Part shown: positions 35,276 through 36,796 of the stretch, piece after piece
Position numbering within the stretch: position 1 is the stretch's first letter
Layout: each line of letters begins with the position of its first letter
Source of the DNA: Escherichia phage EK99P-1
Length of the DNA stretch: 44,332 nt
Direction: 5' to 3' (one strand)
Sequence record: NC_024783.1
Translations under genes and position numbers: made by a program
The notes under the pieces: generated by a model
Database searches by the model: none
What the model saw: the letters and a program-made list of their open reading frames with translations, nothing else
Told to the model about the DNA's origin: nothing

Positions 35276-35527
35276 TTATTTTGTCTCCCAGCGGTCAATT
35301 GTTTTTGCTTCGGATGCAACTGCGAAGCGAACATATTCCAGATTGGAATCCGCCCAAATATAAAAGTCGGGGTTAGTAAAGGTGGTGCGCTTAATTTGCG
35401 CGGGGGTGTTACGGCGTTTATCTATTACGGCAACGCGTGACTGAAAGCTGCCGATGCGTTCGAATAGCCAATAGTACGGGCGCTGGTCGCGGGAGTCCAC
35501 CGCCTCGATTAGCGTGAAGCGTGCCAT
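35276..35527 (-). CDS. hypothetical protein
   Basis: 83 aa, RBS GAGGA. Confidence 0.45.
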   Translation of the reverse strand: MARFTLIEAVDSRDQRPYYWLFERIGSFQSRVAVIDKRRNTPAQIKRTTFTNPDFYIWADSNLEYVRFAVASEAKTIDRWETK

Positions 35528-35540
35528 TGTCTCGTCCTCT

Positions 35541-35567
35541 AAAAAGAGGCCCGCAGATTAGCGGGCC
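35541..35567 (-). terminator. rho-independent terminator after the first early-left gene
   Basis: On the minus strand GGCCCGC-taatct-GCGGGCC followed by TCTTTTT. Confidence 0.55.
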
Positions 35568-35575
35568 GGATAATA

Positions 35576-36061
35576 TTAATCTTCCAGTTCGAAATAAGTT
35601 TCGACGATTTCTTTAAGTTCTGTGTGGAAGTCTTCGACGTCTTCATCTTCCAGCTTGGCGATTGATTTGATCTCGAACGATTCCAGCAGGTCGTCAAATT
35701 CGTCGTTCGCGTCGTCGTCGTCACCACCAGCGATAATAGCGGCATATTGTTTGATTTCGTCGCGCATCTCAGCCAGCGGATCGGCATCTTTCTTGCCTTT
35801 GCCTTTCGCCGGGGCTTTTTTACCCTTAGCTGGTTTTACGTCATCAGCGTCATCGTCGTCGTCATCTTCTACGACTTCTTTTTTGGCTTTCGCCGGAGCT
35901 TCGTCGTCAGCGTCGTCATCTTCTACGACTTCTTTTTTCGCCTTAGACGGCTTCTTGTCTTCCTGCTTGCCAACGGCAGCGCCAACGGTTTCATAATGCT
36001 TAGCGATGGTTTCCAGTGCTACTACGCCGCGAGTAATCAGGTTTACGATTTGTTCAAACAT
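35576..36061 (-). CDS. highly acidic repeat protein (possible DNA mimic / anti-restriction candidate)
   Basis: 161 aa, runs of D/E, internal duplication AKKEVVEDDDADDEAPAK / AKKEVVEDDDDDDADDVKPAK. First gene downstream of the leftward early promoter. Confidence 0.5.
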   Translation of the reverse strand: MFEQIVNLITRGVVALETIAKHYETVGAAVGKQEDKKPSKAKKEVVEDDDADDEAPAKAKKEVVEDDDDDDADDVKPAKGKKAPAKGKGKKDADPLAEMRDEIKQYAAIIAGGDDDDANDEFDDLLESFEIKSIAKLEDEDVEDFHTELKEIVETYFELED

Positions 36062-36259
36062 GTTTTATATCTCCGATTGGTTAAGTTTAGGTGTCGACCA
36101 TTAACCTCGTCGGTGGCCTTAACATAGTGCCTGGTTACGCGTTCTCCCGTTCGGGTAGTGGACCAGGTTATATAATCACGGTTGGGAATCCTGACACTTC
36201 GATCCGGCCCCTGCGTTGCCCCTCTCCAGTTTGCGTCCTGCATCCTGTCGACGGAGTGA

Positions 36260-36288
36260 ATATTAGATTGGTTGCAGAATGGAGTCAA
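36260..36288 (-). promoter_or_regulatory. leftward early promoter (PL-like)
   Basis: Minus strand: TTGACT (-35), 17-nt spacer containing TGCAACCAAT, TAATAT (-10). About 190 nt of leader before the ATG at 36061. Confidence 0.5.
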
Positions 36289-36299
36289 CAACTAATTTC

Positions 36300-36334
36300 A
36301 AAAAAAAAAGCGCCGAGGCAAAATGCGACGGCGC
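36300..36334 (-). terminator. minus-strand intrinsic terminator between the divergent promoters
   Basis: Plus strand A10 then GCGCCG-13 nt-CGGCGC. On the minus strand this is hairpin plus U10. Confidence 0.45.
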
Positions 36335-36406
36335 TAACCAATAAGAGACAATGAGACGGGAATTATTATTACACGCGTGCGCGCCCGTTTCAATATATCA
36401 AAGGAG

Positions 36407-36452
36407 TTGACACCCTGCTGTTTTAGGTGTAGTTTCGTTGGTCATTAACCAA
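36407..36452 (+). promoter_or_regulatory. rightward early promoter (PR-like) with operator palindrome
   Basis: TTGACA (36407-36412), 17-nt spacer, TAGTTT (36430-36435), then TTGGT-catta-ACCAA (36438-36452) before the RBS. Confidence 0.55.
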
Positions 36453-36466
36453 CCGGGGACAGAAAA

Positions 36467-36796
36467 ATGAATATCAACGACGCAATCGAAATGTTAACTA
36501 AGACTGTTTGCAGTGAAACAAGCCGGTCCTGGGCGTATACCGATGCCGTGGGGGCGGTGCTATTTGAAATCGAACGCCTGCGACTCACCGAAAAAGAATT
36601 GCGCGCGAAGCTGGAATTACTCAACGGTACGGCAGCCAGCAAGCTGCAAAAGCACAATGAAGAAATGGAAGAATACAAAAAGCAGGTTATCCGTCTACGT
36701 GAGGAAGGTAAATCCTGGGCTATGATCGCCGAGCTAACCGGAATCAACCAGAGCACTGTGCGCTCCTGGGTACGCAATAATAAAACTTCCAAATAA
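36467..36796 (+). CDS. small HTH DNA-binding protein (candidate early regulator)
   Basis: 109 aa. C-terminal helix-turn-helix GKSWAMIAELTGINQSTVRSWV. First gene after PR. Confidence 0.55.
   Translation: MNINDAIEMLTKTVCSETSRSWAYTDAVGAVLFEIERLRLTEKELRAKLELLNGTAASKLQKHNEEMEEYKKQVIRLREEGKSWAMIAELTGINQSTVRSWVRNNKTSK

Follow-up and report, generated by a model that had tools for sequence, protein, structure and literature searches.

What controls the two early operons that diverge from a 405-nucleotide (nt) gap (36062-36466) in the genome of Escherichia phage EK99P-1 (NC_024783.1), and does this gap encode regulatory RNA in addition to promoters? An earlier reading of the same DNA, referred to below as the original prediction, had placed here two back-to-back promoters, named PL-like and PR-like, together with a terminator for leftward transcripts and, between the promoters, a possible short RNA. 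The computational comparison reported here suggests that the gap is probably a compact control hub with four working parts, namely a rightward promoter, a small RNA, a terminator shield, and a structured leader RNA. The whole record of 44,332 nt is called the window throughout, and the coordinates of all features are collected in Table 1.

The DNA in hand is the genome of a Dhillonvirus, a group that we take to be virulent rather than temperate; approximately 2 kb around the locus matched 174 phage records at 80-95% identity, nearly all of them Dhillonvirus (the group of HK578, EP23, and SO-1). According to the open reading frame (ORF) map and the annotation of EP23 and welsh, the gap separates two divergent early blocks. 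On its leftward side, the gene of an acidic 161-amino-acid (aa) protein is followed by small ORFs, a PD-(D/E)XK nuclease, and an SSB-like protein, and on its rightward side the gene of a 109-aa helix-turn-helix (HTH) protein is followed by a 754-aa primase-helicase gene; with these blocks flanking it, the gap is therefore a true divergent early control region. PL and PR serve as names by analogy only, and among the genes examined none was noticed that would encode a lambda-like repressor, no search aimed at one having been made. Dhillonviruses are T1-like small siphoviruses with genomes of 43-46 kb, related to the T1-like Drexlerviridae, and are included in the BASEL reference collection (PMC8594841).

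A conserved promoter, predicted RNA body, and terminator between the early promoters

The plus strand reads A10 at 36300-36309, followed by GCGCCG...CGGCGC at 36310-36334. On the minus strand, these letters make up a hairpin (36334-36310) with a U-tract behind it, the arrangement of an intrinsic terminator, with a predicted fold of -17 kcal/mol (z = -2.7). Since the A-run stands ahead of the hairpin on the plus strand, the terminator is predicted to act on leftward transcripts only, in agreement with the original prediction, which had read the A-run and GC hairpin in this way. A simple terminator scan skipped the hairpin only because its inner stem-loop exceeds the 8-nt loop limit, and the terminator has already been annotated by prediction in the GenBank record of CS16. 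The original prediction had also named loss of the hairpin and A-run among relatives as an observation that would speak against it; both were kept in 20 of 20 distinct Dhillonvirus versions of the region, the A-run with 8-13 A. The stem reads GCGCCG/CGGCGC in most of them, UCCCCG/CGGGGA in L013 and Ioannina, and UCCCCAG/CUGGGGA in L016, a more divergent relative, with a U-run of 8-13 throughout. These stem changes are compensatory, revealing that the structure, not the sequence, is conserved.

Hexamers and spacing of the sigma-70 type were found at three sites. The PL-like promoter matched the consensus at 9 of 12 positions, and the middle promoter, which lies upstream of the terminator on the minus strand, matched at 10 of 12 with a TG extension and was the best match in a 4-kb promoter scan. 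The PR-like promoter has a consensus -35, but only 3/6 matches in its -10, which fell below the scan threshold and left the promoter unlisted. As a class, promoter-like matches were no commoner in the scan than expected by chance (4 found versus 3.3 expected), and the case for the promoters therefore rests on comparison. All three were found in each of the 20 distinct versions. The PR-like -35 and GTGTAGTTT were kept in 18 of 20 relatives. For the middle promoter, all 23 distinct versions have an identical -10 and 20 of them an identical -35; L054 and L078 carry single substitutions, and L016 has a different promoter instead. In the GenBank record of HK578, three promoters have been annotated by prediction at the equivalent sites. 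The back-to-back PL-like and PR-like promoters and the minus-strand promoter upstream of the terminator, all proposed earlier, were thus recovered and proved to be conserved. The PR-like and middle promoters likewise stand back to back, with 14 bp between their -35 hexamers.

Between the middle promoter and the hairpin lies a 23-nt body (36357-36335) that was invariant in 19 of the 20 versions, against approximately 91% identity of the surrounding DNA, and whose conservation exceeds that of the flanking genes. In contrast to the body, the 4-7 nt that separate it from the -10 are variable, a pattern expected if a functional RNA starts there. Moreover, the 5' seed CUCAUUGUCU was invariant in all 23 distinct versions, including L016, which retains only this part of the body; by folding and comparison it would form a conserved single-stranded seed, as in trans-acting small RNAs. 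The predicted RNA has its own transcription unit in silico, with a hairpin and at least 6 U at its 3' end. Because the terminator is conserved with compensatory changes and both the promoter and the 23-nt body are conserved, a minus-strand RNA of approximately 56 nt is the best reading of the middle promoter, body, and terminator together, and the short non-coding RNA of the original prediction gains support from these comparisons.

No conserved plus-strand ORF was found across 36300-36358 in the ORF list or the relatives, a 20-codon plus-strand ORF opposite this interval being broken in relatives by indels of 1-3 nt. An Rfam scan of 2.5 kb returned only chance-level matches for the small-RNA region (E 0.4-7.6, far below gathering scores). 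The spacer of the middle promoter (36374-36387) consists of GC-rich overlapping palindromes, ACGCGTGCGCGCCC, which include sites for MluI and BssHII. Relatives preserve this spacer to a high degree, apart from a single substitution here and there and, in L013, the loss of 2 nt, and such a conserved palindromic run is unusual for a promoter spacer.

Complementarity of the predicted small RNA to early-gene initiation regions

An almost identical initiation sequence, UUAACCAAYCGGRGA-N7-8-AUG, is found at the first gene of either operon. Over 22 nt, the initiation region of the HTH gene shows 82% complementarity to the plus strand at the leftward initiation region, and therefore both mRNAs carry nearly the same sequence. 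A repeat search showed the small RNA to be 86% complementary over 14 nt to the initiation region of the acidic gene, covering its Shine-Dalgarno (SD) sequence, and the predicted duplexes reach -17.2 kcal/mol with the acidic gene and -17.3 kcal/mol with the HTH gene. In addition, the start region of the 83-aa second leftward gene (GAGACAAUG), which is identical in all relatives listed, pairs perfectly over 9 bp with the small-RNA nucleotides CAUUGUCUC, across the AUG, and the start of gene 39551, ACAAUGAGA, also offers a perfect 9-bp match over its AUG. The seed complement AGACAATGAG, with at most one mismatch, had no match in the window besides the small-RNA gene itself. The small-RNA gene resembles a third, inverted copy of the initiation module common to both first genes.

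When 61 initiation regions were ranked by duplex energy, five early genes (the first three leftward genes, the HTH gene, and gene 39551) were within the top seven. Among 400 shuffled seeds, one reached the summed energy of the three leftward genes and none that of these genes plus the HTH gene; for the rank sum, the corresponding counts were 3 of 400 and 1 of 400.

The comparison with L016 provides the strongest point for the target model, a co-change of RNA and target read from the sequences of both. The 3' half of the L016 small RNA is entirely different, ACUCCUGAA, and it matches the SD region of the L016 first gene, UUUAGGAGU, at -19.9 kcal/mol (0 of 200 shuffles). The L016 5' seed, GCUCAUUGUC, pairs perfectly over 10 bp with the start of the L016 primase gene, GACAAUGAGC, at -28.7 kcal/mol (0 of 200 shuffles). 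For the window type and L016, the cognate pairs scored -17.2 and -19.0, versus -11.5 and -7.0 for the swapped pairs. Furthermore, a perfect 12-bp match to the small RNA was found at the primase start of Ioannina, and a 10-bp match at the alternative first gene of CHD5UKE2. Complementarity at initiation regions is thus maintained by covariation in what is essentially one lineage contrast (window type versus L016), to which L013 and Ioannina add partial support.

With conservation and complementarity computed as above, production of the RNA and repression by pairing are inferred as follows. The rightward sigma-70 promoter would drive the HTH gene and the primase-helicase gene, and the strong leftward middle promoter would make the RNA of approximately 56 nt, ending at the hairpin-U10 terminator. 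This RNA may pair with the SD and start-codon regions of the phage's own early mRNAs, with its 3' half (UCUCUUAUUGGUUA) on the first gene of each operon and its 5' seed CUCAUUGUCU on starts of the ...GACAAUGAG type (the 83-aa gene and gene 39551), or, in relatives, on the primase or an alternative first gene. Such pairing would dampen or time early-gene translation. The terminator (36334-36300) may in turn shield the leftward early promoter from read-through, its T-run covering -56 to -47 relative to that promoter, the expected place of an UP element, and the transcript of the leftward promoter would start within a few nt of the leader described next.

A covarying leader RNA in the leftward early operon

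The original prediction had considered the PL leader long enough to carry regulation, a suggestion that is strengthened by the finding of a covarying structured RNA in it, which in Dhillonvirus starts approximately 7 nt after the -10 of the PL-like promoter. In a structural alignment of 25 distinct sequences, the leader comprises six helices and two branch points. Paired cells made up 97.3% of this alignment, versus 25-45% when the partners were slid by 1-3 columns, and 18 of 38 pairs were changed on both sides. The covariation score was 0.448, compared with at most 0.062 for the slid controls, and was reached by none of 500 shuffles. All covariation lies in P1, P1a, P3, and P4, and the evidence for P2 and P2a consists of one-sided changes from G-C to G-U only. 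These G-U pairs occur only on the minus strand, and the strand of the leader is therefore fixed as minus. Single-sequence minimum-energy folds disagreed between lineages.

A covariance model of the leader (R1) scored 170 bits on the window leader and 13.6 bits on the next best match, and revealed no second copy in the window. Neither the window version nor the Arya version matched any Rfam 15 family at E <= 10. In the library of papers searched, neither the small RNA nor the leader was described, and full-text search for a 14-nt piece of the leader core gave no match. The leader is proposed as a candidate new RNA motif that matches no described family tested.

Two other interpretations of this segment were rejected. 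The GTCGAC 'direct repeats' flanking the leader are not target-site duplications of a mobile element, being the two strands of P1, and the leader region is not a protein-coding gene, as indels between groups are not multiples of three. The AUG-initiated 82-aa ORF that covers the leader in the window stops after 10 codons in Arya. Many Dhillonvirus records in GenBank annotate the stretch of the leader and the small-RNA gene (the equivalent of 36090-36400) as one or two 'hypothetical proteins', a matter of some consequence for annotation; since the reading frames are not conserved, these are probably mis-annotations.

Table 1. Coordinates of the features discussed, as positions in the window.
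Feature	Position	Strand	Description
PL-like leftward promoter	36260..36288	minus	-35 TTGACT 36288-36283, 17-nt spacer, -10 TAATAT 36265-36260
Middle promoter (small RNA)	36365..36393	minus	-35 TTGAAA 36393-36388, 17-nt spacer, TGT 36373-36371, -10 AATAAT 36370-36365
PR-like rightward promoter	36408..36436	plus	-35 TTGACA 36408-36413, 17-nt spacer, -10 TAGTTT 36431-36436
Inverted repeat	36437..36453		GTTGGT-CATTA-ACCAAC at about +1 of the PR-like promoter; read from sequence
Predicted small RNA, ~56 nt	36300..36358	minus	5' part GUCUCAUUGUCUCUUAUUGGUUA 36357-36335, hairpin 36334-36310, U10 36309-36300
Structured leader RNA, ~160 nt	36090..36256	minus	Structural alignment and covariance model
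Leader P1	36252-36245 with 36100-36093	minus	8 bp closing the whole element
Leader P1a hairpin		minus	3-4 bp, GGA in loop
Leader invariant core, 52 nt	36227-36176	minus	P2 5' strand and P2a hairpin
Leader P2	3' strand 36118-36104	minus	Long-range helix, GC..CG..GGGGCY with GGCY.CC..CG..GY
Leader P2a		minus	UCAGG / CC.UGA, loop AUUCCCAA
Leader P3/P4 hairpin	36167-36130	minus	P3 5-6 bp
Leader P4		minus	3 bp and CU/AG, tetraloop cap
Acidic 161-aa protein gene	36061-35576	minus	First leftward gene; ORF map
Initiation region, acidic gene	36059..36084	minus	UUAACCAAUCGGAGAUAUAAAACAUG
Terminator after acidic gene	35548..35567	minus	Intrinsic, 20 nt ahead of the next gene's start; scan
Start region, 83-aa second leftward gene	35519..35535	minus	GAGACAAUG
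109-aa HTH protein gene	36467-36796	plus	First rightward gene; matches HTH_23 and Sigma70_r4_2
Initiation region, HTH gene	36445..36469	plus	UUAACCAACCGGGGACAGAAAAAUG
GCAACCAAT, sites 1-7	6044, 6058, 22154, 24955, 26853, 26870, 29827		
GCAACCAAT, sites 8-14	36267, 39083, 39118, 39399, 39489, 39520, 40039		
GCAACCAAT copy in PL-like promoter spacer	36275-36267	minus	

Distribution and possible role of the leader

The leader is present in Drexlerviridae, Jilinvirus, and Sortsnevirus as well. BLAST searches with the gap alone matched 36176-36227 to T1-like phages of other genera at 92-94% identity and 36136-36241 to Jilinvirus-like and Sortsnevirus phages at approximately 78%. Altogether, the leader was located at 172 places in 170 phage records, essentially one copy each. 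In six other phage contexts it is oriented as the flanking genes are and lies within a 200-270-nt gap between them, with a -10-like hexamer, recognized by eye, 9-11 nt upstream of it in other genera. No match to the leader or to its flanks was found in any of 5,426 Escherichia coli genomes, and pattern scans of metagenomes and genomes detected the full core only on phage contigs, the other matches being chance ones in unrelated metagenome-assembled genomes (MAGs).

Within Dhillonvirus, 148 nt (36096-36243) are absent as a clean indel from YD-2008.s, Sloth, L009, L013, Ioannina, SP1, and CHD5UKE2. In YD-2008.s, SP1, and CHD5UKE2, a 12-nt filler that can form a small hairpin stands at the equivalent site (GGGC-AUACC-GCCC in YD-2008.s), and these phages keep the P1 5' strand GUCGACAG, which suggests that the interior was deleted or replaced rather than precisely inserted. 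L013 and Ioannina have a different, shorter junction where the leader is missing.

The distribution and fold of the leader fit an exchangeable module that phages can do without and that would bind a conserved host component. It may act in cis or as a stable RNA, with RNA polymerase, the ribosome, or an RNA-binding protein, for instance CsrA, as the component bound. The leader has three conserved GGA motifs, in the P1a loop (GCA-GGA-UGC, that is, CAGGAUG), in GGAGAGG, and in CAGGAU of P2a. On account of the invariant single-stranded GGAGAGG, the P1a GGA, and the P2a CAGGAU, the 30S subunit and CsrA are candidate partners, and RNA polymerase is another because the leader is promoter-proximal; covariation was computed here, and the partner is inferred from these features. 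The 5'-terminal helix P1 might by itself protect the 5' end of the mRNA. A role of the leader as a gene-specific riboswitch was rejected as unlikely because the genes downstream of it are unrelated between genera.

Weighing of the alternative explanations

Several observations weigh against a trans-acting small RNA and a structured leader as described. The transcription start and 3' end of the small RNA are predictions, and its promoter in L016 is weak and was missed by the scan. In a genome-wide duplex scan of the phage nothing rose above shuffled seeds: duplexes of -16 to -19 kcal/mol are unexceptional there, the best off-target reaching -23.7 kcal/mol and shuffled seeds -20 to -27 kcal/mol, and the target signal emerges only with the search restricted to initiation regions. 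The target gene set was picked after the ranking had been seen, any RNA complementary to a sequence resembling a ribosome-binding site (RBS) would be expected to score well on many initiation regions, and the primase start of the window itself has a central mismatch (-13.7 kcal/mol). In addition, the UUGGUUA of the small RNA coincides with AACCAA[T], a DNA motif strongly over-represented genome-wide, and therefore its conservation could reflect a protein-binding site in DNA. As for the leader, P2 and P2a, which lie in the invariant core, never change on both sides. The promoter scan found no consensus promoter upstream of the leader outside Dhillonvirus. The alignment was handmade with the structure in mind (with N padding), since MAFFT and RNAalifold on raw sequences misaligned P3.

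The hairpin and T-run might be mainly a transcriptional insulator and UP element, keeping RNA polymerase from the middle promoter, or from farther to the right, off the leftward early promoter, with the short transcript a functionless by-product. The tandem order of promoter, terminator, and promoter is exactly the layout of an insulator, the length of the A-run is free to vary (8-13), and the T-run occupies about -56 to -47 of the leftward promoter, the position that we take to be the distal UP subsite, where stimulation would be exerted via the alpha C-terminal domain. Such an insulator, however, leaves unexplained the invariance of the 23-nt body amid variable flanks, the retention of a strong promoter only to be terminated, and the joint change in L016 of the body and the first-gene initiation region. 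We regard it as unlikely to be the main function, and note that insulation and a small RNA are compatible with each other. An attenuator at the same place, in which the middle promoter and terminator provide a second, regulated entry to the leftward operon with factor-controlled read-through, would suit the position of the terminator upstream of that operon on the same strand, and the second intrinsic terminator after the first gene implies that graded termination is seemingly used in the operon. Yet inspection of the 23-nt body revealed no alternative antiterminator pairing, no leader peptide, and no recognized factor site, the hairpin and its U8-13 resemble an efficient terminator, and the spacing of the leader is constant relative to the -10 of the leftward promoter rather than to the middle promoter, all of which makes attenuation highly improbable. 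Instead of RNA elements, the conserved sequences may be operators in the DNA to which a phage protein binds, such as the 109-aa HTH protein encoded by the first rightward gene; sites of the AACCAA type in the small-RNA body, the PL spacer, PR +1, and both initiation regions would then organise the early-to-late switch. The 9-mer GCAACCAAT occurs 14 times in the window versus 0.59 expected, and TTGGTTR 24 times versus 9.5 expected, with one copy in the PL spacer and the inverted repeat at PR +1. But operators cannot account for the compensatory changes in the terminator stem or for the conserved seed CUCAUUGUCU, which is without the motif, and in L016 the small RNA and its target lost the motif yet stay complementary. 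Operators in place of RNA elements thus appear distinctly improbable, whereas an operator role in addition to the small RNA is probably true for the GCAACCAAT sites.

Regarding the leader, a put-like processive antiterminator would bind the emerging RNA polymerase and enable it to read through the terminator at 35567-35548 and those beyond. The put RNA of HK022 (approximately 70 nt, two stem-loops) likewise stands at the extreme 5' end of an early operon, with putL just downstream of PL, and is highly conserved among phages of related hosts (PMC9378689); the leader is promoter-proximal, an intrinsic terminator follows the first gene, and a core invariant across genera with common enterobacterial hosts fits a conserved host partner. 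Against this stand the size and architecture of the leader (approximately 160 nt, six helices), its single copy, with none for the other operon where HK022 has both putL and putR, and its dispensability within the genus. The terminator 35567-35548 is conserved in relatives with and without the leader, and seven Dhillonvirus relatives without it keep both this terminator and the gene order. We therefore consider obligatory put-like antitermination unlikely, because phages without the leader keep the downstream terminator and no second copy was found in the window, and a put-like function as a whole rather improbable. A broader proposal, to which we subscribe only tentatively, is that the leader represents the first member of a new class of structured RNAs in phages and forms, with the adjacent trans-acting small RNA, an RNA-based early switch. 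The leader would then be a portable module exchanged between unrelated enterobacterial siphophage genera, its 52-nt core would reprogram a host machine (RNA polymerase, the 30S subunit via the exposed GGAGAGG, or CsrA), and the 'pseudo-ribosome-binding-site' complement in the small RNA would set early-gene translation in a virulent phage without a repressor.

Relation to known regulatory RNAs

The P22 sar and lambda OOP RNAs are short untranslated phage RNAs of early control regions, each with its own promoter and intrinsic terminator, and sar blocks an RBS. The predicted small RNA would share with them its size class (approximately 60-80 nt), a dedicated promoter in an early control region, and an intrinsic terminator. 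Unlike sar and OOP, which are cis-antisense and lie opposite their targets, it has no conserved gene opposite it, and its predicted targets are several, lie 110-1200 nt away on other transcripts, and are paired only partially (9-15 bp). The c4 RNA of P1 and P7 is a trans-acting antisense RNA encoded beside its target, in which short blocks occlude the RBS in the ant operon. Adjacency to the target and short complementary blocks covering an RBS are predicted here too, but c4 is processed from the transcript it regulates and serves lysogenic immunity, whereas the present RNA is equipped with a promoter and terminator of its own, and its predicted action extends to both divergent operons. With Hfq-dependent small RNAs of the RybB and OmrA/B type, the predicted RNA shares a single-stranded 5' seed, an A/U-rich stretch, a GC hairpin, and a U-tail, as well as multiple predicted targets at initiation regions; unlike them, it comes from a phage of a virulent genus and is predicted to target phage genes. 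On this comparison it is rated as a variant of the known phage anti-RBS RNAs (sar, c4), apparently built like an Hfq-type small RNA.

The repeat of CsrB is CAGGA(U/C/A)G. As in CsrB-type and CsrA-bound leaders, the GGA motifs of the present leader are invariant and one of them lies in the loop of the covarying P1a; unlike the CsrB type, the leader has only 3 conserved GGA, inside a larger invariant core that would not be needed for CsrA binding alone.

Early gene control in T1-like and Dhillonvirus coliphages is essentially uncharted, and Dhillonviruses are common in isolation campaigns and represented in BASEL, making the predictions directly testable. If true, the small RNA would be a compact example of a virulent-genus phage using a trans-acting RNA against its own RBSs, and the leader would add a new RNA motif in which covariation is strong and the core unusually invariant. 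The leader-less phages of the same genus are natural knockouts and an ideal start for finding the host partner.

Other observations

The copies of GCAACCAAT are mostly intergenic, often occur as tandem pairs 14-35 bp apart, and take either orientation relative to genes. Several of them read TTGCAACCAAT, in which TTGCAA could serve as a -35. Probably the motif is bound by a DNA-binding protein of the phage or belongs to a class of phage-specific promoters. The inverted repeat at the PR-like start is conserved in most relatives and is possibly an operator or a 5' hairpin.

The acidic protein is extremely acidic and lysine-rich and carries an internal repeat (KKEVVEDDD..., twice), without any Pfam match; its versions in relatives are 143-171 aa long, and one record marks a repeat region inside it. 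The distant primase relatives L093-L102 (37-45% identity) were too diverged to inform the comparison. One of them, L101 (primase identity only 45%), retains CUAACCAACUGAGGA ahead of its first leftward gene, at about 2449-2475.

A 21-nt intergenic repeat of phage TLS, aaATAGCACnnnTTGnTAAAA, has been published but left unexplained (PMC11447400). In the T1-like phages L023 and L024 (slyngel and tunus), a repeat of the TLS type lies approximately 60 nt upstream of the leader, reading ATAGCACTTTTTGTTAAAAC in tunus.

The host labels of four records look doubtful. MG065648 (Campylobacter phage A144) and OQ221563 (Acinetobacter phage NJ01) are approximately 91% identical to coliphage Dhillonviruses over the 2-kb query, and ON843697 (Pseudomonas phage Motto), classified in Tempevirinae, carries a close copy of the leader. 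The fourth, L068, is a 42.8-kb contig (QFQS01000013) of a MAG named 'Cereibacter sphaeroides', in which the leader equals that of sortkaff except for one flank difference in 190 nt; given its phage-like length, this contig is probably phage DNA binned into the MAG.

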